NCBI GenBank assembly: GCA_938082545.1
Contig: CALKCL010000015.1
Coordinates: forward strand, 20,025 to 84,024
DNA: 64,000 nucleotides
Source of the DNA: an uncultured Gammaproteobacteria bacterium
GTDB lineage: Bacteria > Pseudomonadota > Gammaproteobacteria > Ga0077536
Reading direction: 5' to 3'
The notes beneath the pieces were generated by a model, which worked only from the letters and a program-made list of their open reading frames with translations, made no database searches and was not told where the DNA came from. The position numbers and the translations under genes were made by a program. Positions 1 to 57,735 of the stretch are shown here, in pieces (the stretch's first letter is position 1; every line of letters begins with the position of its first letter).

Positions 1-827
1 ATAGGATCTTCTGCTCTGACGCTCATGTGATGAATACGAGCTCGAGGCTTTAGGTTGTAGCGCTTTACTGCAGCCTCTGAGGCTATGAGCATTGCAGAAG
101 AACCATCACAAGTTTGGCTGGATACTGCTGCAGTAATACTCTTTAATCCAAAGATAGTATTTAGCTCTGACATTTTTTCAAGACTGGTTTCTCGAGGAGT
201 CTCATCATGATCAAGACCATTGAGTGGCACGATTTCTCGTTTAAAGCGTCCTTCTTTTATCGCGTGTAACGCTCTTCGGTGAGACTCTAACGAGTAGACT
301 TCCATTGCTTCACGCGATAGCCCCCATTTGTCAGCCATCATTTGAGCGCCTTTAAACTGCGTAGGTGGATCTTCTCCATATCTAGCCACCCATCCTGGCG
401 ACGTACTGAATGGATCTGGAAAACCAAACCCACCTGCCGCAACCGCAGAAGAACCAATCGGTATTTTGGTCATAGTTTGAACACCACCAGCAATGACTAC
501 ATCGTTAACTCCAGACATGACCGCTTGTGCAGCAAAATGCACCGACTGTTGGGAGGATCCGCATTGGCGATCAATTGTGACTCCTGGCACAGCTTCGCTA
601 TATCCCGCGGTGAGCCAGCATGTTCTAGCAACATCTCCAGCTAGAGGCCCGATGGCGTCTATAGTTCCAAATATAACATCATCGTATTCGTCGTCAGGAA
701 TCCCATTTCTCTCCACAATCGCTTTTATAACGTGAGCACCCAGATCCGCTGCATGAATATCTTCAAGAGAACCTTTGCGTCTGCCGGTAGGGCTTCTGAC
801 TGCATCAATAATGTAAGCTTCGTTCAC
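1..827 (-). CDS. acetyl-CoA C-acyltransferase (thiolase); N-terminal part only, the gene runs off the window start
   Basis: Absent from the ORF track (GTG start, truncated by the window edge). My translation of the minus strand from GTG at 827-825 reads VNEAYIIDAVRSPTGRRKGSLEDIHAADLG...TIDRQCGSSQQSVHFAAQAVMSG.... The RSPxG N-terminus and the DRQCGSSQQ nucleophile-Cys motif are thiolase hallmarks. AGGAGAGG lies 5 nt upstream of the GTG. Confidence 0.8.
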   Translation of the reverse strand, partial: MNEAYIIDAVRSPTGRRKGSLEDIHAADLGAHVIKAIVERNGIPDDEYDDVIFGTIDAIGPLAGDVARTCWLTAGYSEAVPGVTIDRQCGSSQQSVHFAAQAVMSGVNDVVIAGGVQTMTKIPIGSSAVAAGGFGFPDPFSTSPGWVARYGEDPPTQFKGAQMMADKWGLSREAMEVYSLESHRRALHAIKEGRFKREIVPLNGLDHDETPRETSLEKMSELNTIFGLKSITAAVSSQTCDGSSAMLIASEAAVKRYNLKPRARIHHMSVRAEDP

Positions 828-971
828 TGTAACCTCTCCTTGATTCTGTTAGTCCAGACGTTGTCGATGACGTTCTTCCATGATCAGAATATATCAGACT
901 CTCGGCAATAGAGCTTGCCTAGTTTTTCTTTTCTGTGCCTGTTGAATTCGCATTAAAATAGAAGTCTCTAG

Positions 972-2249
972 TTAGTCAATTATCTTTTCGGCGGTAGAAA
1001 AAAGAATCCAGATGATAGCGCCAAAGATATTGATCGCAGCACACAGAGTGAATGCCGAAGCAAAGGACCCTGTTGTATCCACAAGCCAGCCGGTGATGAT
1101 AACGCCAATGATCCCAGGTATTGTACCGGCAGTATTTGTGATTCCCATTAATACATCAGCATACCGAGGGGCTATGTCGAGGTGGTTAGGTACAAAACCG
1201 GACCACATCAAAGCAGCGAGACCAAGCGCTCCAGACATAAACGCCATAGCTAGATAAGGGTCGCTTACATCCTTTACTGCTAGCAAACAGGCAGCGGATC
1301 CTAGCAGACCGCTGACCTGCATTAATTTTCGTACGCTGGTTAAGCTCATGCCTTTTGCGTGAAGTTTGTCAGCGCCCATTCCCCCTAAGTTGCCTACTAT
1401 CAGCATACTGAGGTAGGGCGCGGCTGAGTAGAGACCTGCATTCATAATACTTAGGTCATGCTGGCTTCTGAAGTAACTTGGAAGCCACGCAAGCAACATA
1501 TATAGGATCCAGTTACTGCAGAAATGATTAATAATCAACGCCCAGACAGCTCTGCTCTTGGCGAATTTCCCCCAAGGAATCGACTGAGCTTGGTCAACAG
1601 GCGGTGTCAAAGGTAGCAGTAGATTTTTCTCCTCCTCAGAACATCTAGGATCGGTAGCCGGATCGTCATGAGCATAGAAATACCAAATTACTACCCACAA
1701 TGCTCCGCCAAGACCGAAGGAGTAAAAAGCAGCTGGCCAACCGTACGTTTCTACTAGCCACCCTGTAACCAGAAGAGCGAATAAGGTACCCAAAGGGATA
1801 CCGCCAACGAGTAATGAAACGGAGCGAGAGCGCTCGTTAGGTGGGACCCATCGGCTATATAAATTATAGGCGGAAGGGAACATAGCAGCTTCTCCCAAGC
1901 CCATTCCGATTCTGGCGGCTATGAGGACGATGATGCTAATCCCCGCAGCGAATGGAGTTAAAAAAGTAAAAAGAGACCACCATAAGACAGCAAAACCGAG
2001 TATAAGCTTGCCTCCAAGTTTATTTGCTAACCATCCACTAGGAATTTGAAAAAGCAGGTAACCAATAAAGAAAGAAGATAAGACATACCCTTTAGTAGTT
2101 TCGCTCCAACCAAATTCTTCTTGCATGGCTATAGCTGCAACCGAAATATTGACCCTGTCTGCGTAACAGATGAAAACCGCAAAAACGCACAAAGCTACGA
2201 TTGTGTATCGGCGAGGCCAATAGAAAAACTTACCGGATAAGCTACTCAT
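972..2249 (-). CDS. MFS transporter, anion:cation symporter (ACS)-like
   Basis: 425-aa ORF, hydrophobic throughout with about 12 predicted TM segments. The N-terminus (ADRVNISVAAIAMQEEFGWS, then GYLLFQIPSGWLANKLGGK) matches the MFS ACS-family pattern. Confidence 0.8.
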   Translation of the reverse strand: MSSLSGKFFYWPRRYTIVALCVFAVFICYADRVNISVAAIAMQEEFGWSETTKGYVLSSFFIGYLLFQIPSGWLANKLGGKLILGFAVLWWSLFTFLTPFAAGISIIVLIAARIGMGLGEAAMFPSAYNLYSRWVPPNERSRSVSLLVGGIPLGTLFALLVTGWLVETYGWPAAFYSFGLGGALWVVIWYFYAHDDPATDPRCSEEEKNLLLPLTPPVDQAQSIPWGKFAKSRAVWALIINHFCSNWILYMLLAWLPSYFRSQHDLSIMNAGLYSAAPYLSMLIVGNLGGMGADKLHAKGMSLTSVRKLMQVSGLLGSAACLLAVKDVSDPYLAMAFMSGALGLAALMWSGFVPNHLDIAPRYADVLMGITNTAGTIPGIIGVIITGWLVDTTGSFASAFTLCAAINIFGAIIWILFSTAEKIID

Positions 2250-2372
2250 GGAAAAGTTCCTTCATTTAGTATTATGAGCCTATATAAGTTATATTTAGTG
2301 TAATTTTATCAAACACAAATTTTTTCGTCTCTTTTAGTTTACGATATGTGGCGAGAAATAATGGAGCATTTA

Positions 2373-2654
2373 ATGCCAATTTATGAATATCAATGTAAAG
2401 CTAACGGTCGGACGGTTGAAGTGGTGCATCGTATGGCAGATCGCTTTTCCAGCTGGCAGGAGTTATGCGAGCATGCGCAAATAGGTCTTGGTGATACGCC
2501 CGGTGATTCAGAAGTCATTCGGATAGTTGGAGGGGGTAACGCTACTATGGCTCCTGTGACGACTTCTAAGTTATTAAAATCGGCCGGTGCAGCATCGACT
2601 AGTTTATCAGGCACTAGAGGCATGGCTGCACCTGCAAGGACCAATAAATTTTAG
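2373..2654 (+). CDS. FmdB-family (CxxC_CxxC_SSSS-like) small protein with a degenerate zinc ribbon
   Basis: The MPIYEYQC start is the signature opening of the FmdB/zinc-ribbon family. I place the start at the internal ATG at 2373 rather than the ORF-track ATG at 2346. Only two Cys remain (QCKANG, ELCEHA) instead of two CxxC knuckles. Confidence 0.5.
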   Translation: MPIYEYQCKANGRTVEVVHRMADRFSSWQELCEHAQIGLGDTPGDSEVIRIVGGGNATMAPVTTSKLLKSAGAASTSLSGTRGMAAPARTNKF

Positions 2655-2660
2655 TATAAG

Positions 2661-3095
2661 TTATTTTTTTGTTCGTCTTGCATCAGTGAGCAAAGAGGCA
2701 TAGCTCACCCCCGGACGGTTGTCTCCAGTCAAAGGAAGATTTGCCTCCCTCCACTCGTCCACGCCTTTTCGTAATATTTTTATATTTAAAAAGCCTGCCG
2801 CCTGGAGTCGCGTCGCAGCTTCCAGTACACGACTATCAGAATTGCCTCCAACGATAAGGACATCATCTTTTTTTAACGCGTGTTGAGCTACCAGTTCGAA
2901 GGCTGGACTCGGGTGTACTTCTTTAGCGGTAGGGTGAAAAAAAACAATCGGTATATTGACAGCCCGTCCTTTCGGACGATTGGTTGCAAATTCTGCGACC
3001 GTTCGCACGTCAACATATGTGCTGGTACCCTCTTGACCTATCTCCGCCGCAACGAGATCTGCGTTGATACTTTGATTCTCTAAATTATCATTCAT
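2661..3095 (-). CDS. rhodanese-like domain protein, probably non-catalytic
   Basis: VDVRTVAEF...NIP...LIVGGNSDSRVLEAATRLQAAGF...G..EW is the rhodanese fold pattern. The active-site loop reads GGNSDSR, with Gly where the catalytic Cys normally sits. I prefer the ATG at 3095 over the TTG at 3110. Confidence 0.65.
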   Translation of the reverse strand: MNDNLENQSINADLVAAEIGQEGTSTYVDVRTVAEFATNRPKGRAVNIPIVFFHPTAKEVHPSPAFELVAQHALKKDDVLIVGGNSDSRVLEAATRLQAAGFLNIKILRKGVDEWREANLPLTGDNRPGVSYASLLTDARRTKK

Positions 3096-3110
3096 CGTAG
3101 ATACTCTCAA

Positions 3111-3350
3111 TTATTTAAACGCGTTGACGAAGGGAGGAATGATTTGGCAGCGTGATCTTTGTGGGAGTGGTGTCGTTTCGCCAAGTTGGAAATTGTTGGA
3201 GGTGTCGCTTGGAGAAGTTGCCATTTGCTCTTTATGCAAGTGAATGATGCGGCCGTTAGGTGCTAAGGCAAATATGCAATCAATTATCTGTATTGCGGGT
3301 AGTGTTCCAAGTTCAGGGTGCTCAAGGTACTTCCTATCTGGATTTGACAT
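3111..3350 (-). CDS. hypothetical protein (79 aa)
   Basis: The ORF abuts the rhodanese-like gene on the same strand. I recognise no motif. Confidence 0.35.
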   Translation of the reverse strand: MSNPDRKYLEHPELGTLPAIQIIDCIFALAPNGRIIHLHKEQMATSPSDTSNNFQLGETTPLPQRSRCQIIPPFVNAFK

Positions 3351-3508
3351 CGATTATTTCTTCCTGGCTGTGGGATTTAAATAGTATTTTGGGCTATTTT
3401 TCGTTGATGTGCACCATATTTTGCTTAAACCGATGTTAAAGGTTTCAGAAGTACGGGTATACTTGAACATTAAATTCGTAGAGAAGCGGTTAAGGGGAGC
3501 TAAATAAA

Positions 3509-4162
3509 ATGTCGTTTGTACCTCAAAAAGAATTGGTCACAGGAGTCGAGCGTCATCCTTTAGATGCTGATGTCCCGAATGTCATAGAGAAGCTGTTCGC
3601 GCTAAAGAACCAATGTACAGAGTGTAATGTTTGTGAGGTCGCCTGTTCATTAGTGCACTCTCCGGACGGCACAGTGAACCCCCAGTATGCTAGGTTAAAA
3701 ATTGACCATGCACCGGACAAAGCGTCTCGTGTGAATCCAGATGGCTTAGGTTTCATTGCGGAAATCTGTCATCATTGTGGAAATCCACCGCCCTGTGCTG
3801 AAGTGTGTCCGACTGAAGCCTTCTATTATGATCCAAAAACAAAAGCTGCGGTCATAGAACAAGATAACTGCATCCAGTGCATGGAATGTGTCCCTGGTTG
3901 CCCTTTTGACGCCGTGTTTATTGCTCCGTCTGGCGAGCTTCTGAAATGTGATCTGTGCGGCGGAGATCCAGTGTGTGTTAAGGCATGCGCAGCGCGGCCG
4001 GAAATGCTCAATCAAGGTAAACAGTACGTGAGACTTCCTGTGTTGTTTTATTCCGAGCAGGCTGAATTCAATAAAGAACATAAGCAGGTCCCGGAAAAGA
4101 CAGATGAGGTAGGGATGATGCAAGCGATGCTAGAGGCAGGGACAATTTCAAGTCCGGCGTAA
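3509..4162 (+). CDS. 4x[4Fe-4S] ferredoxin-type electron-transfer subunit (AorA-like)
   Basis: Four Cys clusters: CTECNVCEVAC, CHHCGNPPPCAEVCP, CIQCMECVPGCP and CDLCGGDPVCVKAC. The gene lies immediately upstream of the AOR gene. Confidence 0.85.
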   Translation: MSFVPQKELVTGVERHPLDADVPNVIEKLFALKNQCTECNVCEVACSLVHSPDGTVNPQYARLKIDHAPDKASRVNPDGLGFIAEICHHCGNPPPCAEVCPTEAFYYDPKTKAAVIEQDNCIQCMECVPGCPFDAVFIAPSGELLKCDLCGGDPVCVKACAARPEMLNQGKQYVRLPVLFYSEQAEFNKEHKQVPEKTDEVGMMQAMLEAGTISSPA

Positions 4163-4192
4163 GTAGTTAGAGTTAATTTGGGGAGAAATATT

Positions 4193-6157
4193 ATGGAAAG
4201 TCGATTATTAAGAGTGGATTTGACCACAGGCGAACTCAAGAGTGAGGTCATCCCTCATAGTATATTTGAGAGATGGATCGGTGGCTCGGGAATTAATAAT
4301 TGGATTATGTGGGAGCATTTCCTAACTCACGACATAAATTGTGATCCGCGTGGCCCAGACAATATCTTCGTTTTTGGTGTTGGCCCGCTGGCTGGAACAG
4401 GAGCAGGTAGCGGGATTAAAGGACGCATTACCTTTAAGAGCCCTTGCTACAATATGTTCGGGGACTCGGCAGGGGGGGGGAAATTCCCATATATGTTGAG
4501 ATTTACAGCGTTCGAGTATATTGCGATTACGGGGAAGTCACCCAAACCGGTATATCTCCGGATCTGTAACAATGAAGTTTCTTTGGAAGACGCGTCTCAT
4601 TTATGGGGTAAAGACACCTTACAAACACATACTATGCTGCGTGAAGAGTTAGGAACCTATCCTTCAAAAGTTCATACGCTATCTATTAGTCAGGCGGGAG
4701 AGAACCAGGTAGGGATAGCAAGCGTTGTGTCTGATGCCTTAAGGATTCATGCAAGATGCGGCGGAGGTGCCGTCATGGGTTCAAAAAATCTTAAAGCAAT
4801 CGCAGTCCAGGGCAATGGTGGCCTTCCTATAGCCATGCCTGATGAAATGCTAGCCTGGTCCGATGATTTCCGGCAGAAAATAGACAGCAATGAAGCTGTT
4901 TATGGCTTCAAGCGTCGTGGAACCCTCGGTGCGGTTGAAATGTACCAACATATCGGAAGTCATTTTTGGCGGAATAATCAAGGGAATATGTTTCGCGGCG
5001 GAGAAATCACGTCCGATAACTGGGTGAATAAGTATCATAAGTATTCCGAAGTTTGTTCGTCAGACTGTTTCATTGCGTGTGACGCAAAATATAAAATTGA
5101 TGGGACTGAGTCAGAGGCTGCCAAGAAATACATTGGAGAGTCATTTAGACGGCCTGAGTATTTGACCACAGGAAGTGCGGCAGGAGCTTTAGATGTAAGA
5201 GACTGGGCTGAGGTTGCTCATTGGGGCAAAATCACCAATGATTATGGGATAGACAATCAAGACTTGTCATGTGCTATTTCGTTTCTCATGGAGCTTAAGC
5301 AGCGGAAACTAATTACAGATCAGGATGTTGTGGAGCTGTTTGGCCGTGAACAGAGTTTAGAATGGGGCAACATGGATGACATTGAAGCATGTCTCCATAG
5401 CATTGTTTTTCAGAAAGACTTGTTTGGTAAACTCTTTGGTGACGGGCCGTATCTCGGTGCGATTCGGTATTCCGAACTGAAAGGTCAGAATTTCATGAAA
5501 TATGCGACTTACGGAAAAGGTGGTGCCAGCTTTACCGAAGAGATGAGACCCTTCCCAACGTGGATGAACAATATGGCCGTCGCCTCACGTGGAGCCGATC
5601 ATTTAAAAGGGATTGGTTTAATCGAAAAATTCCAGCGTAAAGATCTATCTAAGATCTATTTTGACGGGCGTACAGAAGCTGCAGATCTCACTGTTCCTAC
5701 TTTAAAAGGGGCCTCAACCGCGCTCATCGAGAATCAGGTTGCTCTGTTAAATTCCTATGGAGTGTGCCTTTTCCATTGGATGCTCGACCCCGCCGGTTAC
5801 ACTCCTCAGGATTACTATGGAAAAGCTTATGCTGCTGCTACTGGGATTGACCGAACCCCAGATGAATTAATGCTTGATGGCGCTAGGATTTGCAATTTAG
5901 AGAAGGCTTTCAATTCAAGGATAGGTATGCGGCGAGAGCATGATACTGTGTGTGAAAGATGGATGTGGGAACCCACTGAAGAGGGTATGTATCCTGGATC
6001 GGTAGCGGCAGATATGTTCAATCCAGTTTTAGATGAATATTATGAGTGGCGTGGTTGGGATAAAGAGTCAGGTCTGCAAACCAGAAAATCTCTAGAGGCT
6101 TGTGGCCTAGATGACGTAGCTGAAGTACTGGCGCAAGAAGGTTCGCTCGCTAAATAG
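4193..6157 (+). CDS. aldehyde:ferredoxin oxidoreductase family (tungsto/molybdopterin) catalytic subunit
   Basis: The N-terminus LLRVDLTTGE...GGSGINNW... followed by GxGPLAGT and the overall ~655-aa length fit the AOR family. I take the start at ATG 4193, after GGGGAG at 4179-4184; the ORF track begins at TTG 4178. Confidence 0.88.
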   Translation: MESRLLRVDLTTGELKSEVIPHSIFERWIGGSGINNWIMWEHFLTHDINCDPRGPDNIFVFGVGPLAGTGAGSGIKGRITFKSPCYNMFGDSAGGGKFPYMLRFTAFEYIAITGKSPKPVYLRICNNEVSLEDASHLWGKDTLQTHTMLREELGTYPSKVHTLSISQAGENQVGIASVVSDALRIHARCGGGAVMGSKNLKAIAVQGNGGLPIAMPDEMLAWSDDFRQKIDSNEAVYGFKRRGTLGAVEMYQHIGSHFWRNNQGNMFRGGEITSDNWVNKYHKYSEVCSSDCFIACDAKYKIDGTESEAAKKYIGESFRRPEYLTTGSAAGALDVRDWAEVAHWGKITNDYGIDNQDLSCAISFLMELKQRKLITDQDVVELFGREQSLEWGNMDDIEACLHSIVFQKDLFGKLFGDGPYLGAIRYSELKGQNFMKYATYGKGGASFTEEMRPFPTWMNNMAVASRGADHLKGIGLIEKFQRKDLSKIYFDGRTEAADLTVPTLKGASTALIENQVALLNSYGVCLFHWMLDPAGYTPQDYYGKAYAAATGIDRTPDELMLDGARICNLEKAFNSRIGMRREHDTVCERWMWEPTEEGMYPGSVAADMFNPVLDEYYEWRGWDKESGLQTRKSLEACGLDDVAEVLAQEGSLAK

Positions 6158-6173
6158 GGTTGAGGTTTATATC

Positions 6174-6455
6174 GTGATAACAGTGCATGCTAAGTTTCAC
6201 AGCCATTTCAAAGAGCTCGCGGCTACTGGTGAGGATTCATTTGTTATTGAAATTACCACGGTGAGTGAATTCGCAAAATGTATATGCGACAAATATGGGT
6301 CTAGGATGAGAGCAATGCTGATCGACCCGAAAACTAACGAACTTAATGAGCGCGGAACAATGTTTGTTAACGAAAAGGGAATGAGAGTTTCTGCAGAAGA
6401 TATTCTTGAAGACGGCGAAACTATCACTTTTCTTGTCGGGATAGCTGGGGGTTAA
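6174..6455 (+). CDS. MoaD/ThiS-family sulfur-carrier protein
   Basis: 93 aa, ending in a C-terminal Gly-Gly (VGIAGG*), 16 nt downstream of the AOR gene. Confidence 0.7.
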   Translation: MITVHAKFHSHFKELAATGEDSFVIEITTVSEFAKCICDKYGSRMRAMLIDPKTNELNERGTMFVNEKGMRVSAEDILEDGETITFLVGIAGG

Positions 6456-6510
6456 AACTCTTCAGCTACGCTGACGATGCGAGATAGGTTTTCTCTTAAC
6501 CGTTCAGATT

Positions 6511-6855
6511 TTAGTCAACTAGTAACTTCTGATATATCTCCTCGTTAAAACCGACTATTAGATGCTTGCCACTTATTAAAGTAGGGGCTCTTAGGTTACC
6601 AGTTGGGCCAAGCATGCCGTTAATTAGGTCTTCAGGCACCTCCCCGCTAATTACAAAGGAAGCAACTTTTTTGCCCTTCGCTATCGTGATACTTTCAACT
6701 GAAGTGGCCAGACTTATTGCATCTGTTCGACTGAGTTTTCGTGACGCCGGAATAATCTCTTTTGGCACTAAGCTTTTGGCATCCAGAAACTTGGACGCTC
6801 TGACACAGCTTGTTCAGCCTTTACGAAAGTAGTACCAACCGATTTCTGTAGCCAT
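6511..6855 (-). CDS. ArsC/Spx-family thioredoxin-fold protein with in-frame TGA at 6816-6814 (candidate selenocysteine, U-T-S-C motif)
   Basis: The ORF track gives only 6511-6768 (GTG start, 85 aa). Reading upstream in the same frame gives ATG(6855) MATEIGWYYFRKG-TGA-TSCVRASKFLDAKSLVPKEII.... The TGA aligns with the first Cys of the CTSC motif of Spx/ArsC-family proteins. The C-terminus NLRAPTLISGKHLIVGFNEEIYQKLL is the family's conserved end. The total length of 114 aa is typical for the family. Confidence 0.6.
6770..6811 (-). other. SECIS-like stem-loop immediately 3' of the in-frame UGA
   Basis: Numbering the mRNA from the first nt after the UGA: lower stem AAGCU (+3..+7) pairs with AGCUU (+40..+44). 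Upper stem GCGUCCA (+16..+22) pairs with UGGAUGC (+29..+35), 7 bp including one G-U. The 6-nt apical loop is AGUUUC and contains GU. The distance from UGA to loop is about 23 nt. Confidence 0.45.
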
Positions 6856-6999
6856 TCAAGTGCCCTAATTTAATTCGTTTAGCATATTTTACGGATTATT
6901 CTTATAATGTGCACTATCTAAAACAACAATTGTTGGCGCGTGTAGGTTTTGAGCACCAAGTAAGTTGCGCTGCAGCGTCGCACAACAGGGGAAGCCGTA

Positions 7000-8238
7000 A
7001 TGAGAGACGTTCATATAGCAGGTGTCAGTATGACTAAGTTCGGAAAGTTTCTGGATAAAAGCCTAAAAGATCTTACAGGGGACGCGCTACATGAAGTATT
7101 AAAGGATGCAGGTTGTAATGGAAAATCGGTAGAAGCGGCATTTTTTGGCAACTGTGTTCAAGGTCACATGGAAGGGCAGGATATGGTGCGGGGAGAGATT
7201 GCGTTACGTCCGTTCGGAATAGAAGGTATCCCTGTCGTTAATGTGGAAAATGCCTGCGCTACAGCAAGTACTGCCTTTCACATGGCCGTTAATTACGTAA
7301 AGGCGGGTGCTGCGGATGTTGTTTTGGCAATTGGTGTAGAAAAAATGTTTTCTGAAGATAAGGCTCGGATGTTTAGCGCCTTTGATGGCGCGTGGGATGT
7401 TCATGAAGTTGAAAAAAGTAAGAGCCGCTTTGATGAAATGGCAGTAGGAGTAGAAATTCCTGAGGGAACTACCTCCCCTCGACCTTACAGCGTATTCATG
7501 GATATTTATGCAGGCTTTTGCCGAATGCATATGAGAGAGTTTGGGACAACCCAAGAGCAGCTTGCGATGATTGCTTCTAAGAACCATGAGCACTCGGTCC
7601 ACAATATACGCTCACAGTATAACAAGTCATTTTCTGTCGAAGAGGTCCTTGCTGCAGCGCCGATAACTTATCCTTTAACCTTACCTATGTGCTCTCCAGT
7701 AAGCGATGGGGCAGCGGCTGCCATAGTTTGTAGCGATGCTGGGTTAAAACGTTTAGAGCTTCAGGGAAGTCGTGCTACGAAAGTTTTAGCTAGCATATTA
7801 AGAGGTGGCAGTGACCGAGACTTAAGCGATTTTTCAAAGCATGCTAGTCGGCTAGCCGCTCTGACTGCTTACGAGCAAGCTGGTGTTGGCCCTGAAGACG
7901 TCGATGTGGCCGAAGTCCACGATGCGACAGCTATGGGCGAGGTGATGGAAGTCGAGGCTCTCGGTTTATGTGAGCTTGGCGGTGGAGGTCCTATGGCGGA
8001 AAACGGAGACAGCCGCATAGGAGGACGTCTCCCCGTTAACCCTTCGGGCGGACTAGAATCGAAAGGTCACCCTATCGGCGCAACGGGGTTGGGCCAAATA
8101 TATGAACTCGTGACTCAACTTAGAGGCGAATCAGGCCAGCGTCAAGTCGATGGTGCGCGTATTGCAATTGCTCAGAATGGAGGTGGTATTGTTGGGATCG
8201 AGGAAGCTGTCACCGCTATTACCATTTTGGGCGGTTAA
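7000..8238 (+). CDS. thiolase-like protein, SCP-x / lipid-transfer-protein type
   Basis: MRDVHIAGVSMTKFGKF..., NVENACATASTAF (active-site Cys) and NPSGGLESKGHPIGATG match the SCPx-type thiolase pattern. Confidence 0.8.
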   Translation: MRDVHIAGVSMTKFGKFLDKSLKDLTGDALHEVLKDAGCNGKSVEAAFFGNCVQGHMEGQDMVRGEIALRPFGIEGIPVVNVENACATASTAFHMAVNYVKAGAADVVLAIGVEKMFSEDKARMFSAFDGAWDVHEVEKSKSRFDEMAVGVEIPEGTTSPRPYSVFMDIYAGFCRMHMREFGTTQEQLAMIASKNHEHSVHNIRSQYNKSFSVEEVLAAAPITYPLTLPMCSPVSDGAAAAIVCSDAGLKRLELQGSRATKVLASILRGGSDRDLSDFSKHASRLAALTAYEQAGVGPEDVDVAEVHDATAMGEVMEVEALGLCELGGGGPMAENGDSRIGGRLPVNPSGGLESKGHPIGATGLGQIYELVTQLRGESGQRQVDGARIAIAQNGGGIVGIEEAVTAITILGG

Positions 8239-8279
8239 TCCTCGAGCGGTTAGCACTCTGAGCTAAGGAATTTTCAGTT

Positions 8280-10031
8280 ATGGTAGGGGTTACAACAAAA
8301 TATACTATCTTGCTTGATGGAGAAATTTTACCATCGAAAGAGCTCGTTGGCGGAAAAGCCTGGTCGCTTTGTCGGATGAAGAGTATGGGATTGTCTGTGC
8401 CTCCTGCGGCAGTAATTACGACGACTGCTTGTTTTGAGTACCTGAAAACCGGAGTTTTGCCGTCTGACTTACGTGCTGAAATTCGAGATGCGGTGACTGC
8501 ACTAGAGGATCAAACTGGGCGGCAATTTGGGGGAAAGAAACCACTACTACTATCTGTGCGCTCAGGGGCTGCGGTTTCTATGCCGGGGATGATGGATACA
8601 GTTCTCAATTTAGGAATAAACAGCAGTGTCGAAGAAGCCTTGGCGTTAGAAACTCAGGACGTGGAGTTTGCACGAGATACGCATCGACGCTTTTTATCTC
8701 TTTATGCTGACATTGTTTTGAAAAGCTCAACCCTTGTTGCGGTAGATGATAAAATCGAGTCTATTTTAGATCGTATTGCAAATGAGTCAAAAATGGTCCC
8801 TGACTGCCCTTATGAGCAGCTTTTTAGTTCTGTTGAGGCGGTGTTTTCTTCCTGGAATTCACGACGTGCTAAGCGGTATAGAAAGCATAACAAGATTTCA
8901 GATACATTAGGCACCGCAGTTGTCATCCAAGCGATGGTCTTCGGTAATCTGGATGATGATTCGGGAACGGGCGTCTTGTTTAGCAGGAATCCTTTGAATG
9001 GGGTTAAAGAACCTTATGGCGAATACCTTAGTCGCGCGCAAGGCGAGGATGTGGTATCTGGCACCTGCACACCTGAGCCGATTAGCGCGTTGCAAGATAA
9101 AGCCCCAATCCTTTATCAGGAACTAATTAGATCGGCAGAAGCTCTAGAGCGCGAAAATACAGACGTACAAGATATCGAATTCACTATTCAGAATGGTAAA
9201 CTTTTTCTCTTGCAGTCTCGCGCTGCCAAACGCTCTCCCGAGGCTGCGGTGTCTTTTGCAATTGATATGGTTGATGAGGGGTTAATAAACAAAGAGACTG
9301 CTTTATCCAGGGTGTCTTCAGAACAAGTGCGCACCCTTTTAATGCCGAGGTTGGCTCAGCACCCTGATAGCGCCCTCTCTGTGCTGGCGAAAGGTGAGTC
9401 GGCTTGTTACGGTGTTGGAATCGGGTTAGTCGTAGCCTCTTCTGATGAAGCGGAACGGCTTGCGGGTGAAGGTCATAGAGTAGTATTAGCTCGAAGTACG
9501 ACGAGCCCCGAAGATGTTCATGGAATGATCGCGAGTTGTGCGGTGATTACGGAGCAGGGTGGTTCTACTTCTCATGCCGCGGTCGTCGGCAGGGCTTTAG
9601 GTGTGCCATGTATCGTTGGTTGTGGAGAGAATCACTTATCGAGCCTTATAGGTCAAATGGTCACAGTCGATGCCACCGAGGGCATTGTGTATGAAGGGTG
9701 CCTAAATGTCGAAGAACCTAATGAAAAAGATGATTCTAGATTAGTTACGTTGAAGCAATGGGTAGATGAAACCTGCTCTGTTAGAGTGATTTCCTGTGAG
9801 GATAGTGTCGCAAGAGAGGCTTTAAATTTGGATGACGTTATTGGTTGTGATGATCTGTCTATTTCTAAAGAAGCATTGCAAGGTAACGAGTCTGTCAGAG
9901 GAAGTATGATTGACTCTGGTAAAGGGGTCTCCAATGCGATCGAGGCTGGAGTGAAGATTTTGGCGACAAGATACCCTTTAGCGGTTGCTTTGACTGTACA
10001 GGAATACTACAAAGATATTATTAATACTTAA
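8280..10031 (+). CDS. pyruvate,phosphate dikinase-like phosphotransferase lacking the C-terminal PEP/pyruvate TIM barrel
   Basis: PPDK N-terminal ATP-grasp motifs are present: VGGKAWSL, LLLSVRSGAAVSMPGMMDTVLNLGIN, GTAVVIQAMVFGN, AQGEDVVSGTCTP, DIEFTIQNGKLFLLQSR. The phospho-His swivel domain is also present (TSPEDVHGMI...GGSTSHAAVVGRALGVPCIVG). Only about 110 aa follow the His domain, against roughly 350 aa in PPDK. Confidence 0.8.
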   Translation: MVGVTTKYTILLDGEILPSKELVGGKAWSLCRMKSMGLSVPPAAVITTTACFEYLKTGVLPSDLRAEIRDAVTALEDQTGRQFGGKKPLLLSVRSGAAVSMPGMMDTVLNLGINSSVEEALALETQDVEFARDTHRRFLSLYADIVLKSSTLVAVDDKIESILDRIANESKMVPDCPYEQLFSSVEAVFSSWNSRRAKRYRKHNKISDTLGTAVVIQAMVFGNLDDDSGTGVLFSRNPLNGVKEPYGEYLSRAQGEDVVSGTCTPEPISALQDKAPILYQELIRSAEALERENTDVQDIEFTIQNGKLFLLQSRAAKRSPEAAVSFAIDMVDEGLINKETALSRVSSEQVRTLLMPRLAQHPDSALSVLAKGESACYGVGIGLVVASSDEAERLAGEGHRVVLARSTTSPEDVHGMIASCAVITEQGGSTSHAAVVGRALGVPCIVGCGENHLSSLIGQMVTVDATEGIVYEGCLNVEEPNEKDDSRLVTLKQWVDETCSVRVISCEDSVAREALNLDDVIGCDDLSISKEALQGNESVRGSMIDSGKGVSNAIEAGVKILATRYPLAVALTVQEYYKDIINT

Positions 10032-10057
10032 GACATAAAATGTAAGGAAATGATGAT

Positions 10058-10558
10058 ATGGCTAAGCCTCCTAAAGGAGACATTGAAAGTCTAGTTCGAC
10101 AGTTTGATTCATCTGATTGGACTGAGCTGCATATTAAAACGAATGACTTTGAAGTCTATTTGTCTACAAATCCAAATTCTTCGAAGCCGGGCGGGCAGGA
10201 AGATGCAGCTACGCCAGTGAATGCCTCGGTCTCGACTAGCAATGTTGGTTCGAAGGTAGAGTCGGTTGATATAGTGAAGTTAAAGACTGAATCAGCGCGT
10301 AGCGTTGTGCCAGAGGGAATGGTCGGGGTGACCGCCCCAAATTTAGGGACATTTTATAGCGCGCCAAAACCAGGTGCTGCCCCATATGTGAGTGTCGGTG
10401 ATCGGGTTACTGCTGATACAGAAGTGTGTTTGATTGAAGTAATGAAGCTTTTTACTCCAGTAAGATCGGGCATAGATGGCGTGATTAAAGAAATCTGCGT
10501 TGCTGATGCTGAGATGATTGAGTACCAGCAGTTGTTGGTCATCATCGACCCAGCTTAG
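10058..10558 (+). CDS. biotin carboxyl carrier protein (BCCP)
   Basis: The C-terminal biotinyl domain carries the attachment motif CLIEVMKLF. The linker region is rich in Pro, Ala and Ser. Confidence 0.85.
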   Translation: MAKPPKGDIESLVRQFDSSDWTELHIKTNDFEVYLSTNPNSSKPGGQEDAATPVNASVSTSNVGSKVESVDIVKLKTESARSVVPEGMVGVTAPNLGTFYSAPKPGAAPYVSVGDRVTADTEVCLIEVMKLFTPVRSGIDGVIKEICVADAEMIEYQQLLVIIDPA

Positions 10559-10565
10559 GATAATT

Positions 10566-11939
10566 ATGATCAAACGGGTATTGATAGCGAATCGTGGAGA
10601 AATTGCAGTACGGATAATTCGCGCTGCCCATTCTCTCGGGATTGAGGTGGTTCAGGCTGTATCTGATGCTGACAGAGATACCATGGCTGCGGATCTTGCC
10701 GATCGCGTCGTGGTCATAGGTCCTGCCTCAGCTAGAGACAGTTATTTGAACTCAGATCTAGTCATTCACGCCGCAAAAGTAACCGGCTGTGATGCATTAC
10801 ATCCTGGCTATGGTTTTCTTTCTGAGCGAGCGAAGCTTGCTCAAGGATGTGAAGATGAAGGGATTATCTTTGTTGGTCCTAGGGCACAAGTCATTGATGA
10901 TCTTGGAGATAAGTTGCGGGCTAGAGCTATAGCTGAGAAAGCAGGTATTCCGTTGGTTCCAGGCAGTGGTCATGTGCGTACCGTTTCTGAGGCTAGAGTG
11001 GCTGCGGAGGTCTTAGGCTTACCGGTCGTCATGAAAGCATCCGCTGGAGGGGGTGGGCGCGGCATGTTCGTCGCGCGTGAAATAGATGCTATCGATGAAT
11101 TTTTTGATCGGGCTAGCAATGAAGCACTAGAGGCTTTTGGAGATGGGACGTTATATTTAGAAAGATATATCGAAAATGCGCGGCATGTCGAAGTACAGAT
11201 TGCGGGAGATGGAAAAGGTAATGCGATCCATTTCGGAGAGCGAGATTGTTCGGTACAGAGGAGGTATCAAAAGGTAGTAGAAGAGGCCCCCTGTGTCCTG
11301 ATGTCGGATACTTTGCGAAAATCTTTACATGATGCTGCGGTCAAGCTTGTATCTTCTCTTTCTTACCTTAACGTGGGCACAGTTGAATTTTTGTTTGATG
11401 TCGAGCGAGATGCTTTCTATTTTATAGAGGTCAATACTCGTATTCAGGTAGAACATACAGTGACAGAGCAGATTACAGGAATTGACTTGGTCCAGTTGCA
11501 GTTTCGGATAGCAGGACAAGAGCCTCATTCATTGCCATCGCAAAGTGCGATTACTATTAATCGGCACGCAATTGAGTGCCGGTTGAATGCGGAGGACCCG
11601 TTCAATAATTTTATGCCTAGCCCAGGAGTCATTCAACACTGGTGCGCCCCATCTGGGGCTGGTGTCCGGGTGGATAGTCATTGCCGAGATGGCTATTTAG
11701 TTCCCCCGTATTACGACTCTATGATAGGTAAATTAGTAATTACAGCCAATGATAGAGATTCAGCGGTGCAGAGACTCAGTGCCGCGTTAGAAGATTTTAA
11801 GATAGAGGGGTTAGTAACGAACATCCCGCTTCTGCGGGCTATAGTTGATCATAAAGACTTTCGTGACAATAGTTTTAACACTAAGTGGTTAGAGCAAAGC
11901 ATGCTGCCTGAATTCGAGCAAATACAAAAAGAGGAATAG
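10566..11939 (+). CDS. biotin carboxylase subunit
   Basis: MIKRVLIANRGEIAVRIIRA, HPGYGFLSE, KASAGGGGRGM and EVNTRIQVEHTVTE are all present. I take the start at ATG 10566; the ORF-track start at 10518 overlaps the BCCP gene and adds a non-homologous extension. Confidence 0.92.
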   Translation: MIKRVLIANRGEIAVRIIRAAHSLGIEVVQAVSDADRDTMAADLADRVVVIGPASARDSYLNSDLVIHAAKVTGCDALHPGYGFLSERAKLAQGCEDEGIIFVGPRAQVIDDLGDKLRARAIAEKAGIPLVPGSGHVRTVSEARVAAEVLGLPVVMKASAGGGGRGMFVAREIDAIDEFFDRASNEALEAFGDGTLYLERYIENARHVEVQIAGDGKGNAIHFGERDCSVQRRYQKVVEEAPCVLMSDTLRKSLHDAAVKLVSSLSYLNVGTVEFLFDVERDAFYFIEVNTRIQVEHTVTEQITGIDLVQLQFRIAGQEPHSLPSQSAITINRHAIECRLNAEDPFNNFMPSPGVIQHWCAPSGAGVRVDSHCRDGYLVPPYYDSMIGKLVITANDRDSAVQRLSAALEDFKIEGLVTNIPLLRAIVDHKDFRDNSFNTKWLEQSMLPEFEQIQKEE

Positions 11940-11945
11940 TCAAAT

Positions 11946-13403
11946 ATGGCACACATACAATTTCTTGATGAAACAATGAGAGACGGGCAGCAAAGCCTTT
12001 GGGGTATGAGGATGCAGGCTGGAATGGCTCTTCCCGTAGCACCCATGGTTGATAGGACTGGTTATAGCGTGATCGACCTGACTGGGTCATCAATGTTTGA
12101 ATGCTTGATTAAGTATTGCTATGAGAACCCTTGGGAAGGCTTAGACCTTTTAGTTAACTCGATGCCAAGAACGCCTATAAGGGCAGGGATGAGGTCGAAT
12201 GCTTCAGTCACATTCGGGGTGACTCCTGACTCCCTGATGGATGCCTGGATGCGTCAACTCAATGTTCATGGCGTGAGAAGTTATTGGATTTATGATGTGT
12301 TGTTTAATATTGATAAAACTTTGCGTTTGGCTAAAGTTGCTAAAGAGTTCGGTAGCGAGGTTGCAGGTGCGATCATGTTCACGCTGAGCCCTGTCCATAC
12401 GGATGATTATTATGCTGGCAAAGCTGATAAGCTCGCCGCATCAGACGATATAGATACACTTTTACTTTATGACACGGCGGGCGTGCTTGAGAAGGAGCGA
12501 CTATCTACTCTTTTGCCGGCAATCAAAGCTAAATCTCATGGCAAACCAATAGAATTTCATTCTAATAATTTGCTGGGTCAATCAGCAAAGGCTTATCTTG
12601 ATGCCATTGACCTTGGGGCCACTATTTTGCACACGGCAGTTAAGTCAATGGCAAACGGTCCCTCAGTGCCATCTGTCGAGTCAATGGCCAAAAACGTTGA
12701 GCTGCTCGGGCACACTCACAACTTAGATACAGATCTCTTTGCACCAGTGTCAGATCATTTTGAAAAAGTTGGGGAAGCTGCTGGTTTCCTTGTTAACCAA
12801 CACGCTGAATATGATGTGTTGTCTATACAGCACCAAGTCCCTGGTGGGATGGTGGGGACTCTCAAGGCGCAATTGGTTCAAAATGGCATGAGTGACCGGC
12901 TTGATGATGTCTTAAAAGAGACGGCGGCTGTCAGAAAAGAACTTGGTTACCCAGGAATGGCGACCCCTTTTAGTCAGTTAGTAGGTACGCAGGCTGTTCT
13001 GAACATTGTTACTGGGAAAAGATATTCTTCTATCCCTGATGAGGTTATTCAGTATGCAGCTGGTTTTTATGGGGAGACCGCAGGGCCAATAGATCCCAAT
13101 GTTAAAGATATCATTATGTCATCTCCACGGGCTAAACAAGTTGTTGCTAGTCCGCCCCCGCAGCCATCGATCGAAGATTTGCGGGCTGAGTACGGTACCG
13201 ATGATGATGACGAGCTAATCTTGAGAGCGCTAGTTCCGGGTGAAGGACTTGAGAAAATGCGCAAAAGTGGGCCGGTACGAACGACTTACTCTTACTTGTC
13301 TTCTCCGGAACTACAGGAGGTTTCCAGGCTGATGAAGATTGCTCAATCTCCTTTAGTACAAGTGATTAGTGATGACTTTGAAATGACGTTGAAGCGCGGC
13401 TAA
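11946..13403 (+). CDS. carboxyltransferase, 5S / oxaloacetate decarboxylase-alpha / PycB type (HMGL-like TIM barrel), without a fused biotinyl domain
   Basis: The N-terminus FLDETMRDGQQSLWGMRM matches the xTLRDGxQS...RM motif of 5S/OadA/PycB. At 485 aa it is about 100 aa shorter than OadA-like proteins that carry a C-terminal BCCP domain. Confidence 0.8.
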   Translation: MAHIQFLDETMRDGQQSLWGMRMQAGMALPVAPMVDRTGYSVIDLTGSSMFECLIKYCYENPWEGLDLLVNSMPRTPIRAGMRSNASVTFGVTPDSLMDAWMRQLNVHGVRSYWIYDVLFNIDKTLRLAKVAKEFGSEVAGAIMFTLSPVHTDDYYAGKADKLAASDDIDTLLLYDTAGVLEKERLSTLLPAIKAKSHGKPIEFHSNNLLGQSAKAYLDAIDLGATILHTAVKSMANGPSVPSVESMAKNVELLGHTHNLDTDLFAPVSDHFEKVGEAAGFLVNQHAEYDVLSIQHQVPGGMVGTLKAQLVQNGMSDRLDDVLKETAAVRKELGYPGMATPFSQLVGTQAVLNIVTGKRYSSIPDEVIQYAAGFYGETAGPIDPNVKDIIMSSPRAKQVVASPPPQPSIEDLRAEYGTDDDDELILRALVPGEGLEKMRKSGPVRTTYSYLSSPELQEVSRLMKIAQSPLVQVISDDFEMTLKRG

Positions 13404-13409
13404 GAACTG

Positions 13410-14582
13410 ATGCGCAGAGCGGTTATTATTGATGTTGTTAGATCACCCTTTGGTAAAGGACGTGAGGGAGGCTTACTCGCTTCAGTTCACCCCGCAGATC
13501 TTTATGCTCAGGTTCTTTCTGAACTTATTCATCGTACCGACGTTGATCCTCATTTGATTGAGGATGTAATTAGCGGGTGCGTGATCCAGGTTGGGGAACA
13601 GTCTGGTAACATTGGCCGTCAAGCGGCTTTAGCTGCAGGATTACCTGAAACCACCGCCGCCGTAACTTTGGACCGTAAGTGCGGTTCTGCGCAGCAAGCG
13701 ATGGATTTTGCCGCTCAAGGAGTGATAGCCGGAGCTTATGATGCTGTGATAGCGGGTGGCGTTGAAATGATGAGCACCGTTCCTATGAAAGCAAATCGAA
13801 TGGGAAAGGATAATGAGGGTAGTATGTTCCACTCTCGCTATCCTGAGGGAATGATTCGTCAAGGTATTTCCGCTGAACTTATAGCGGCTCGCTGGAATCT
13901 TAGTAGAGAAGACCTCGATAAATTTTCCTTACGGTCTCATAAAAGAGCTGCTTCAGATGTCCGGCGTGTAAACGATATGGTGACTATCGATAGGCCTAGT
14001 AGAGTAGATCTGAAAGACGAGAGTTTACGAGCTAATACCACTATAGATAAATTAGCGAGTTTGGCTCCAGCATTTATTGATGAGTTAGCTTACAAACGGT
14101 TTCCTGAAATTTCTTGGAGCGTCACTGCGGGTAGCTCAAGTCCTGTTAGTGATGGTGCTAGCGCAATGTTGATTATGGAAGAGAAGTTGGCTGCTAGCTT
14201 GAACTTGAAGCCTCGTGCCGCTATTTCTCATTTCGCGGTTGTCGGAGATGATCCGATTATGATGTTAACAGCTGTCATCCCAGCGACACAAAAACTTTTA
14301 AAGCGGGCCGGATTGAACCTCCGTGACATTGATGCTTATGAAGTTAATGAGGCATTCGCCTCTGTACCACTTGCTTGGCAAAAAGAGTTGGATACAGATC
14401 CTGAAAAATTAAATGTTTATGGTGGCGCTATAGCTTTAGGTCATCCAGTCGGAGCCTCGGGTGGTAGATTAATTGCAAATCTCCTTCGGGTGTTGGAAGA
14501 TTCTGGCGGTCGATATGGGTTGGTTACTATGTGTGAAAGCGGGGGTATGGCTAACGCGACTTTGATCGAACGCTTGTCTTGA
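13410..14582 (+). CDS. acetyl-CoA C-acyltransferase (thiolase)
   Basis: VRSPFGKG, LDRKCGSAQQAM, NVYGGAIALGHPVGASGGR and MCESGGMANA are present. Confidence 0.9.
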   Translation: MRRAVIIDVVRSPFGKGREGGLLASVHPADLYAQVLSELIHRTDVDPHLIEDVISGCVIQVGEQSGNIGRQAALAAGLPETTAAVTLDRKCGSAQQAMDFAAQGVIAGAYDAVIAGGVEMMSTVPMKANRMGKDNEGSMFHSRYPEGMIRQGISAELIAARWNLSREDLDKFSLRSHKRAASDVRRVNDMVTIDRPSRVDLKDESLRANTTIDKLASLAPAFIDELAYKRFPEISWSVTAGSSSPVSDGASAMLIMEEKLAASLNLKPRAAISHFAVVGDDPIMMLTAVIPATQKLLKRAGLNLRDIDAYEVNEAFASVPLAWQKELDTDPEKLNVYGGAIALGHPVGASGGRLIANLLRVLEDSGGRYGLVTMCESGGMANATLIERLS

Positions 14583-31250: not shown

Positions 31251-31561
31251 AATTCTGGTGCCAGCGTTAGTCGTAAGCCGTTGAGTTCTTCCGAATACTC
31301 TATTTGACAGGCGAGCCTGGAGTTTTCCTCGTAATGTCCAGAATCTTCGACCATTACCTGCTCATCTTCGGCACGTTCCCCTGTTTTGAATTGCCAATTT
31401 GCATCTAAATACACGTGACAAGTAGAACAGATACAGACTCCTCCGCATATGCCTTCTACCGGAAGACTGGCTTCCCTGAGCACCTCCATGAGGTTGAGGC
31501 CATCACGAGCTTCGATTTCATGCTCTACCCCGTTCCTATCTGTTGCGAAAATTTTCCCCAT
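31247..31561 (-). CDS. [2Fe-2S] ferredoxin (adrenodoxin/putidaredoxin-like, 104 aa)
   Basis: The CGGVCICSTCH...C ligand pattern is present. The gene is wedged between boxB (2-nt gap) and the ligase (overlap). Confidence 0.8.
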   Translation of the reverse strand: MGKIFATDRNGVEHEIEARDGLNLMEVLREASLPVEGICGGVCICSTCHVYLDANWQFKTGERAEDEQVMVEDSGHYEENSRLACQIEYSEELNGLRLTLAPEF

Positions 31562-31563
31562 AC

Positions 31564-32988: not shown

Positions 32989-33006
32989 TAAATCTCCATT
33001 ATTTTT

Positions 33007-57033: not shown

Positions 57034-57516
57034 CTAGTCGCGAAAATTTTTGAACTGTAAAGGATAAGTTTGCTCACTTTCTTTGACAGCGCTAATTGCA
57101 TCTTGCAGTACATTTCGGCTTTTCCCCGTTACCCTAAGTTGTTCATCTTGCATTTGTGCCTGTACTTTAAGTTTAGATTTCTTGATTATTTTGATCAGGT
57201 CGCGTCCTAAATCTTTATCGATACCCTCTCTTGTTAAAATGTGCTGTCTGGTCTCACTTAGGTTAGAGGTTAACGCTTTTAGCTCTAGGCAGTTCACATC
57301 AATTCCTCTCTTTACTAGCTTAGACTGCAATATTTCTAACATTTGTCGTGTCTGGAACTCAGCTTCTGCAATCAATACGATTTCACTATCATTGTATTCA
57401 ACCTTTACTTTTTTACCCTTAAAATCAAAGCGTGTTGCTAGTTCGCGGTTGGCTTGATCTACTGCATTTTTTAGTTCTTGTTTATCGAATGCAGACACGA
57501 TATCGAAACTTGGCAT
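57034..57516 (-). CDS. yajQ: YajQ-family nucleotide (cyclic-di-GMP) binding protein
   Basis: MPSFDIVS...ELKNAVDQANRE..TRFDFKG. The start is at the third Met of the ORF-track ORF. Confidence 0.88.
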   Translation of the reverse strand: MPSFDIVSAFDKQELKNAVDQANRELATRFDFKGKKVKVEYNDSEIVLIAEAEFQTRQMLEILQSKLVKRGIDVNCLELKALTSNLSETRQHILTREGIDKDLGRDLIKIIKKSKLKVQAQMQDEQLRVTGKSRNVLQDAISAVKESEQTYPLQFKNFRD

Positions 57517-57735
57517 GAACACTGACCTCTTAATTACGCTTATTGCCTATTATCTGTTAACTGTTAGAAACAATCATCTAGTTGGCTTAAGGTATGATAT
57601 TTTTATCGCTCAGATGCTTTAATGTACCGATAAATTGTTTCCCTTTTGAAGGTGTTAACATTGCTCACCTAGACTGTGGTTTCTAGTTTTAGATTATTTT
57701 GTACCCCGATTAACATAAAGTTTAAGGTAAATTAA

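Follow-up and report, generated by a model that had tools for sequence, protein, structure and literature searches.

A UGA-containing gene of the NF041106 family in a gammaproteobacterial contig probably encodes a 114-residue selenoprotein

The locus at positions 6511-6855 raises the question whether the short open reading frame recorded there is a gene in its own right, or the distal part of a longer selenoprotein gene in which one UGA codon is read as selenocysteine (Sec). The window, i.e. the whole stretch of DNA that was analysed, comprises 64,000 nucleotides. At this locus the mechanical list of open reading frames (ORFs) contains only 6511..6768, an ORF of 85 amino acids (aa) that starts with GTG. 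On the minus strand, a single frame of 114 codons including the UGA runs from an ATG start codon (6853..6855) to a TAA stop codon (6513-6511), and it contains exactly one internal stop codon, a TGA at 6816-6814. Both the short ORF and the split 114-aa frame had been pointed out in the first-pass annotation of this DNA and were found again here. The frame reads MATEIGWYYFRKG-[UGA]-TSCVRASKFLDAKS...EEIYQKLLVD, with the sequence ...WYYFRKG-U-TSC... around the UGA. Thirteen codons lie upstream of the UGA; in related loci the start codon is located 11 to 14 codons upstream of the TGA. We consider it very likely, with a probability of about 0.9, that region 6855-6511 of the minus strand carries an undamaged gene, that its product is a cytoplasmic selenoprotein of 114 residues from the NF041106 family, and that the UGA is recoded via a SECIS element at positions 6798-6779. 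Likewise, there is a high probability that the locus works as a bacterial Sec-recoding unit. The same architecture of the coding sequence (6511..6855, minus strand; 114 codons with the Sec-UGA counted, then the TAA stop codon) was present in 80 related loci. The cytoplasmic location is proposed because no signal peptide is visible in the deduced protein.

The family to which the protein belongs was determined with profile models, for which U was written as C. The window protein scored 104.3 bits with NCBIfam model NF041106, 'ArsC family (seleno)protein' (ArsC_rel_Se_1; cutoff 85, E 4.8e-30), and its residues 5-108 aligned to profile positions 1-107 of 107. This was the only model whose cutoff was passed. 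Pfam ArsC (PF03960) gave 13.9 bits against a gathering threshold of 24 (E 0.071) and matched the C-terminal 35 residues only. The NCBIfam Spx models gave 14-21 bits (cutoffs 123-159), the Spx/MgsR regulator models TIGR01617, NF002459 and NF009885 gave 19-21 bits (cutoffs 75-152), with arsC_related (TIGR01617) at 19.4 bits against a cutoff of 75, and the true arsenate reductase model TIGR00014 was absent among the matches at E <= 1. The gene is an ordinary member of the known NF041106 family, also called 'arsenate reductase-like protein, UxxC', and its relation to ArsC is at the superfamily and fold level only. The label 'ArsC/Spx-family', under which the locus had been described initially, is thus right at the superfamily level only, since the scores with Pfam ArsC, Spx and arsC_related remained below their cutoffs and NF041106 alone passed.

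A search of a large protein collection yielded 2688 homologues. The closest of these were mostly 85-100 aa long and covered ~78% of the query, as expected from a gene caller that halts at the TGA and resumes at a later start codon. In large protein databases, most entries of the family are such truncations or are mistranslations with 'W' according to genetic code 4. The practical value of the locus therefore lies in annotation quality: plain ORF callers leave an 85-aa fragment that is devoid of the active site. The prediction that any standard ORF caller would mis-annotate the gene holds for such plain callers, as the many database entries of 85-100 aa illustrate, but it overlooks that a curated NCBI '(seleno)protein' model exists.

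The selenoprotein family itself is already known; its listing dates back to 2008, and NCBI has provided a dedicated model for it for years. An 'arsenate reductase' with a UxxS motif was described as a new selenoprotein family in the Sargasso Sea selenoproteome in 2005 (PMC1088965). The GOS selenoproteome of 2008 distinguished two families (PMC2398784): 'ArsC 1' (UxxS, pfam03960), with 77 sequences, and 'Arsenate reductase 2' (UxxC, cd03032), for which 42 Sec sequences from 21 samples and 238 Cys homologues were counted. 'Arsenate reductase-like protein, UxxC' is listed in a 2022 review (PMC9312934) and again in a 2026 review, there explicitly under NF041106 (PMC13188914); the latter treats such selenoprotein families as bioinformatic predictions. 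The suggestion in the first-pass annotation that ArsC-like Sec proteins had been noted in marine selenoproteome surveys was accurate (PMC2398784, PMC9312934, PMC13188914). The window protein resembles the UxxC family of Zhang & Gladyshev (PMC2398784) in having Sec as the first residue of UxxC, a length of ~113 aa, Cys homologues, relatives in marine metagenomes and metagenome-assembled genomes (MAGs), and a bacterial SECIS element directly after the UGA; it does not differ from that family in substance. It shares with the 'ArsC 1' selenoproteins (pfam03960/TIGR00014; Sargasso 2005, GOS 2008) a marine origin, membership of the ArsC superfamily and Sec in place of the catalytic Cys. It differs from them in that these have UxxS and a true ArsC-type model, whereas the window protein has UxxC, has no match to TIGR00014 at E <= 1 and is below the threshold of Pfam ArsC. 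The locus is thus one more member of a catalogued family, and it opens no new question.

What could such a protein do? An AlphaFold2 model was available for the Cys-form homologue P0003, which is 57% identical to the window protein (pLDDT 94.5, pTM 0.87). In this model, a strand (7-10) is followed by the CxxC motif at the N-terminal end of a helix (15-26), and an invariant R-A-P loop lies just ahead of another strand (92-95). As modelled, this layout is that of a thioredoxin-fold active site with a cis-Pro loop. The central region contains a beta-hairpin (55-68) plus two short helices. Residues invariant in the family are A37, S38, K40, L41, G61, M81, L82, G83, T85, G86, N87, R89, A90 and P91. 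The last nine of these fall within the signature motif MLGPTGNLRAP (residues 81-91; codons at 6583..6615, minus strand), which ends in the R-A-P loop, where the thioredoxin fold has its cis-Pro loop beside the active site.

The nearest solved structures by sequence profile were Spx (E 2.7e-8) and then YffB. Only a weak ArsC-related match (2kok, E 0.45) was obtained in the profile search of the PDB, and R773-type ArsC was absent from its matches. The best fold matches were likewise Spx, YffB and ArsC-related proteins, with TM values of 0.5-0.56 and an rmsd of 6-8 A; the poor superposition on solved folds may be due to the central beta-hairpin. Because the profile and fold neighbours are Spx, YffB and ArsC-related proteins and the scores of their models are below cutoff, the window protein represents a diverged lineage within the ArsC/Spx/YffB superfamily; by model scores it is neither an arsenate reductase nor Spx. 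Spx, the RNA-polymerase-binding redox regulator of Bacillus subtilis (PDB 1z3e, 3gfk, 6gho), was the best solved-structure match in both profile and fold. The U-T-S-C motif (U14, C17) aligns residue for residue with C10-T-S-C13 of Spx, the R-A-P of the window protein aligns with R-R-P, and the MLGPTGNLRAP motif aligns with G-L-L-R-R-P. The position of CxxC at the N-terminus of helix 1, as seen in the model of the Cys-form homologue, is also shared. The window protein differs from Spx in having Sec in place of Cys, in being ~18 residues shorter and in coming from MAGs of Proteobacteria and Myxococcota, besides its scores below the Spx cutoffs and the poor superposition.

From motif and fold, the protein is most likely a selenol/thiol oxidoreductase that cycles through a Sec14-Cys17 selenenylsulfide. 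Thus, the 114-residue selenoprotein would adopt a thioredoxin-like fold related to those of Spx, YffB and ArsC, with Sec14 and Cys17 placed at the N-terminal end of helix 1, facing the invariant MLGPTGNLRAP loop. Sec14 would attack the oxidised substrate, and Cys17 would resolve the intermediate via the selenenylsulfide. The codon of the presumed resolving cysteine, a TGT at 6805..6807 (minus strand), has first two bases (T16 and G17 of alignment A2) that are invariant in 82 sequences, and it corresponds to Cys13 of Spx. A different role can be envisaged, in which the family is the proteobacterial selenium-dependent counterpart of Spx, that is, not a catalytic reductase but a redox sensor whose Sec-Cys pair would control the binding of RNA polymerase or of some other partner. 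This role is weakly allowed because Spx is the nearest solved relative, because UxxC aligns with the CxxC switch of Spx and because the gene has no conserved metabolic partner. Failure of the Spx models and the poor superposition weaken it, and we regard it as unlikely, with only a slight chance of being right. The catalytic selenol/thiol oxidoreductase is the function that we prefer.

The assignment of residue 14 (6814..6816, minus strand), with which the U-T-S-C redox motif begins, as Sec is based on a comparison of the U column among homologues. Full-length homologues have either C, in the contexts GCTSC, GCTAC or GCTGC, or W in this column. Homologues P0003, P0006, P0008, P0009, P0021, P0024, P0029 and P0062 have C, and at the DNA level the codon was TGC or TGT in seven of these eight (all but P0006). 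This agrees with the initial proposal that the UGA occupies the position of the first Cys of a Spx-type CxxC. The column aligns with Cys10 of Spx. Two of the nine entries with W were read at the DNA level. In one (P0025/L085) the codon is TGA, translated with genetic code 4; in the other (P0010/L084) it is a genuine TGG, on a contig of 1.6 kb and in a gene with an aberrant C-terminus. A scan of one genome per species provided 598 confirmed loci, of which the best 80 were taken for comparison. Nearly all of these 80 come from marine or environmental MAGs labelled Gammaproteobacteria, Myxococcota, Deltaproteobacteria or Binatia, and they include one isolate, Thioalkalivibrio sp. HK1. The TGA was present at the identical column in 81/81 loci (the best 80 of 598 plus the window), and none of these 81 loci contained a second internal stop codon or any other disruption of the frame. 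The WYYxRKG segment upstream of the TGA was conserved across the same set. The expectation that related loci would conserve the TGA in an intact frame was therefore borne out.

Variability per codon position was 0.39/0.26/0.92 bits upstream of the TGA and 0.75/0.54/1.40 bits downstream of it, which is the same 3-periodic pattern. Since this periodicity is found on both sides of the TGA, the 13 codons ahead of it are translated as well, in the reading frame used downstream. In addition, TGA terminates 8/37 long ORFs in the window, well-defined genes included; it is therefore an ordinary stop codon, and the host uses the standard code. Together, the TGA column, the integrity of the frame, the periodicity upstream and the use of TGA as a terminator exclude that the gene is a pseudogene, that the TGA is a sequencing error, that translation starts downstream or that the code is reassigned.

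The UGA might nevertheless be translated as a residue other than Sec (Trp, Cys or Gly), read either by a suppressor or near-cognate tRNA or according to an alternative genetic code. Several homologues are indeed written with W at the U column, one of them with the genuine TGG mentioned above, and the machinery for Sec was not found within the 64-kb window: searches with ARAGORN and Rfam detected tRNA-Leu only and no tRNA-Sec, and NCBIfam scans of 30 long ORFs did not find selA, selB or selD. Neither was tRNA-Sec found in the flanks of 60 related loci (L001-L060). The capacity of the host to decode Sec is assumed here from the selenoprotein gene itself. Against simple readthrough stand the use of TGA as a regular terminator in the window, the 'W' entry that proved to be TGA under code 4 (one of the two read at the DNA level) and the true full-length homologues, which have Cys, the standard partner of Sec, at the CxxC redox site. 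Furthermore, a conserved and covarying hairpin is located at SECIS spacing, and it would have no role in simple suppression. We consider such readthrough very improbable and retain Sec as the residue encoded by the UGA. A six-frame scan of TAA/TAG-delimited frames split by TGA revealed no second selenoprotein gene in the window. A candidate at 57068-57619 (plus strand) was discarded as the low-complexity antisense of a YajQ-like gene, and a second 'G*TSC', at 13130, is not in the reading frame of the gene that contains it.

The hairpin just mentioned is present in both the minimum free energy (MFE) and the centroid folds of 66 nt around the UGA. Its core (6779..6798, minus strand) consists of a 5' arm GCGUCCA (6798-6792), a loop AGUUUC (6791-6786) and a 3' arm UGGAUGC (6785-6779), all within the codons for A-S-K-F-L-D-A. 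When numbering begins at the U of the UGA, the stem is formed by positions 19-25 and 38-32, which enclose the 6-nt loop. The hairpin lies 15 nt downstream of the UGA and its apical loop 22 nt downstream, close to the spacing of about 23 nt estimated in the first-pass annotation. Folded by itself, the stem-loop has an MFE of -9.1 kcal/mol; for the 60 nt that follow from the UGA the value is -14.3 kcal/mol. The fold energy of the window sequence by itself is unremarkable (z = -1.40; 20/200 shuffles fold as well), and the significance of the hairpin therefore rests on the comparative data. The bSECIS model defines a loop of 3-9 nt with a G in its first two positions, usually followed by G or U, an upper stem of 4-16 bp, a UGA-loop spacing of 16-37 nt and an MFE <= -7.5 kcal/mol (PMC13188914, including the legend to its Fig. 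2). The window hairpin, with its 6-nt loop, 7 bp, 22 nt and -9.1 kcal/mol, is within these limits in all four respects. In the loop A-G-U-U-U-C, the G column is >= 90% conserved and the next U is invariant in 82 sequences. The strict test of the model, which requires an uninterrupted stem at the given MFE, was passed by 58/81 Sec forms, and in these 58 relatives the UGA-loop spacing was 21-23 nt.

The hairpin is similar to the consensus bacterial SECIS element (bSECISearch; archetype E. coli fdhF): both are stem-loops that lie within the coding sequence immediately 3' of the UGA, their apical loop is small and has a G, followed by a U, among its first two positions, and the spacing is within 16-37 nt. 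It has no resemblance in primary sequence to the E. coli SECIS elements, and no Rfam SECIS family matched at E <= 10 in 6700-6900; little weight is given to this because bacterial SECIS elements are heterogeneous (PMC13188914). By analogy with the established bacterial mechanism, the hairpin at 6798-6779 would bind SelB-GTP-Sec-tRNA(Sec) while the ribosome decodes the mRNA, and the UGA at 6816-6814 would then be read as selenocysteine instead of as a stop.

Pairing of the stem was analysed across 78 distinct sequences. Standard pairs occupied 95.6% of the cells, versus 27-35% when the 3' partners were slid by 1-3 columns, and 0/500 column shuffles reached the observed covariation score or percentage paired. 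The RNAalifold consensus recovered the upper stem and nothing else. Of the SECIS-like structure proposed initially, the 7-bp stem with its AGUUUC loop is thus conserved, shows compensatory changes and conforms to the bSECIS model. Its 5-bp lower stem, on the other hand, can form in the window sequence but is absent from the consensus structure of the family, and is specific to the window sequence.

Because the stem lies inside conserved codons, its conservation is partly protein-driven. This leads to the objection that the hairpin is not a SECIS element at all, but a by-product of the conserved peptide A-S-K-F-L-D-A, the common codons of which would happen to be self-complementary. All 14 stem bases are in conserved codons; 2/7 pairs never vary, and two-sided change is seen in only 2/7. 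The weak z-score of the single sequence and the missing match to Rfam SECIS families point in the same direction. Given the location of the stem in these codons, the informative pairs are the two that are made only of third-codon positions. One of them (24-33) is C-G in 77/77 unique sequences, i.e. with zero entropy, whereas most other wobble positions in the stretch have ~0.6-2 bits. The other (21-36) covaries: it is G-C in 43 sequences, G-U in 11, A-U in 9, C-G in 4, U-G in 1 and non-standard in 9, and position 21 is G in all cases in which position 36 is C (43/43). Six of the nine non-standard pairs are A·G, and the adjacent pair is G·A in nine sequences. These A·G and G·A pairs coincide in loci of the AAKFLEA type, such as L004, L005, L009, L022 and L045. 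Tandem A·G/G·A mismatches can generally be tolerated in RNA helices. Pairs that are free to change synonymously are thus either invariant or covarying, and the slid registers show how little pairing is obtained from the same codons in another alignment.

The Cys-form genes provide a further argument against a by-product of the peptide. In those that encode near-identical peptides (RASKFLNA, RASRFLDA), the stem is broken or the G of the loop is missing. Overall, 2-7 of the 7 pairs are left in Cys-form genes, and the mean hairpin energy is -4.8 kcal/mol, versus -9.5 kcal/mol in the Sec forms. In the one Cys-form gene whose stem is perfect, the loop no longer has the G. The bSECIS model is matched by 0/8 Cys-form loci, which represent seven distinct sequences. 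We therefore consider a mere by-product very unlikely, and regard the hairpin as a bacterial SECIS element.

Finally, the view that the locus is a pseudogene or truncated gene, in which the TGA would be a nonsense mutation or a sequencing error and the product, if any, the 85 aa from the GTG at 6768, can draw on the ORF caller giving the 85-aa ORF only, on most database entries of the family being such truncations and on decay occurring in the family (relative L084, with TGG and its aberrant C-terminus), but it is extremely unlikely and is effectively refuted by the comparative data, in which the TGA occupies the identical column in all 81 loci from several phyla with the frame otherwise undisturbed, the 13 upstream codons are conserved as protein with coding-type 3-periodic variation, the 85-aa product would have neither beta-strand 1 nor any of the redox motif, and a relative that is 93-95% identical (L001) has kept the TGA.

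The surroundings of the gene were compared across the same 81 loci. The largest neighbourhood clusters were antisense ORFs of the selenoprotein gene. Among true neighbours a thiolase-like gene ranked best, and it was common to 9/81 loci only. Because no neighbour is kept beyond these 9/81, the neighbourhood does not provide a clue to function. In the window, the thiolase-like gene (7000-8238, plus strand) is divergently oriented with respect to the selenoprotein gene, and the two are separated by an intergenic region at 6856..6999. L001 and L002 might be taken for paralogues within MAG UBA4457 whose 5' ends had undergone gene conversion, but this was rejected, as both flanks match the window; the match favours their being alternative haplotypes of one locus. 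The intergenic region 6856-6999 is 90-100% identical between the two haplotypes, and the gene body of the window allele differs, from just 3' of the SECIS element, from the version of the same locus in related MAGs. On its minus strand, the intergenic region contains weak sigma-70-like sites at 6922->6895 and 6913->6886 (identified as consensus matches; 4 found versus 1.6 expected), which could drive the selenoprotein gene.

Nucleotide comparison of the window with related genomes showed that the locus of the ArsC family selenoprotein gene (positions 6511-6855, minus strand) exists in two haplotypes, the segment at 6455-6780 of the window corresponding to positions ~230-5163 of locus L002 and ~700-5632 of locus L003. 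The alternative haplotype is found in the related MAGs UBA4457 (contig DGOV01000008) and SI072_bin20. Identity between the window and these two MAGs is 87% in the thiolase-side flank and 91-93% in the flank on the side of the aldehyde:ferredoxin oxidoreductase-like gene, and it reaches 93-100% over the first ~75 nt of the selenoprotein gene, which include the SECIS element. From just 3' of the hairpin onward the gene body is divergent (50-60% nucleotide identity), and in the alternative haplotype a 4.7-kb insert comes next, with genes for a LigB-type extradiol dioxygenase, an alpha/beta hydrolase, an HpaB-type hydroxylase and a luciferase-like monooxygenase. The recombination breakpoint between the haplotypes coincides with the 3' end of the SECIS. 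Loci L001 and L002 both belong to UBA4457. A reading as paralogues was rejected, as both flanks match the window. Judged from these alignments, L001 and L002 look like strain variants forming an assembly bubble, because the flanks and the 5' part of the gene are common to both haplotypes.

The region following the UGA also varies among other relatives. Loci L015, L019, L021, L029, L043 and L073 represent a subgroup of the family (…KKASDFMDAHRLVPDD…) that has, within 60 nt downstream of the UGA, an extended first stem of 7-8 bp (GGCRUCC/GGAYGCC) closed by an 8-nt loop, and immediately after this first hairpin a second one with a perfect 7-bp stem (AUCGUCU-CGUGCC-AGACGAU). This second hairpin is absent after the first hairpin of the window.

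Tryptophan at the Sec column was encountered in two settings. Locus L084 (positions 145-501, protein P0010) carries a genuine TGG codon at this position. Its hairpin is still intact, the C-terminus of P0010 is aberrant (…GYNDDGEVNIFGASIF), and the source is one metagenome contig of 1.6 kb; the TGG could be a sequencing error or mark a decaying copy. Eight full-length database entries (P0007, P0011, P0014, P0019, P0025, P0026, P0028 and P0088) also have W at the Sec position. For P0025 (locus L085), the sole entry checked among those eight, the DNA reads TGA, which a gene caller for metagenomes had decoded as W with genetic code 4. Such entries look like systematic mis-translations of selenoproteins on short contigs.

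The genes beside the selenoprotein gene occupy 3509-6157 and 6174-6455 on the plus strand. A 4Fe-4S ferredoxin-like gene adjoins it, as does a conserved 93-aa ORF without family. A nearby 659-aa protein shows distant similarity to tungsten-type aldehyde:ferredoxin oxidoreductase, matching the model in two stretches with 214 bits (cutoff 868). Such genes are unexpected near those of the aerobic benzoyl-CoA (Box) pathway, which lie further along in an aerobic benzoate degradation cluster (29700-34710, minus strand) encoding a benzoate-CoA ligase family protein, BoxB (825 bits) and BoxC (838 bits). Together with the haplotype insert, this cluster suggests that the host is a marine bacterium degrading aromatic compounds.

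A 149-aa rhodanese-like domain protein (2661-3110, minus strand) has a TTG start directly after the stop codon of an upstream 79-aa ORF (3111-3350). A six-frame scan of the window for frames split only by TGA did not return the rhodanese-like ORF as a read-through candidate.

The same-strand gene run at 7000-14582 (plus strand) begins with a thiolase-like protein and a 583-aa PPDK/PEP-utilising-like protein, continues with a biotin carboxyl carrier protein and a biotin carboxylase, and ends with a carboxyltransferase (oxaloacetate decarboxylase alpha-like) and an acetyl-CoA acetyltransferase. This run, which may constitute an ATP- and biotin-dependent carboxylase system, is syntenic in the related loci L017 and L069 at 68-71% nucleotide identity.
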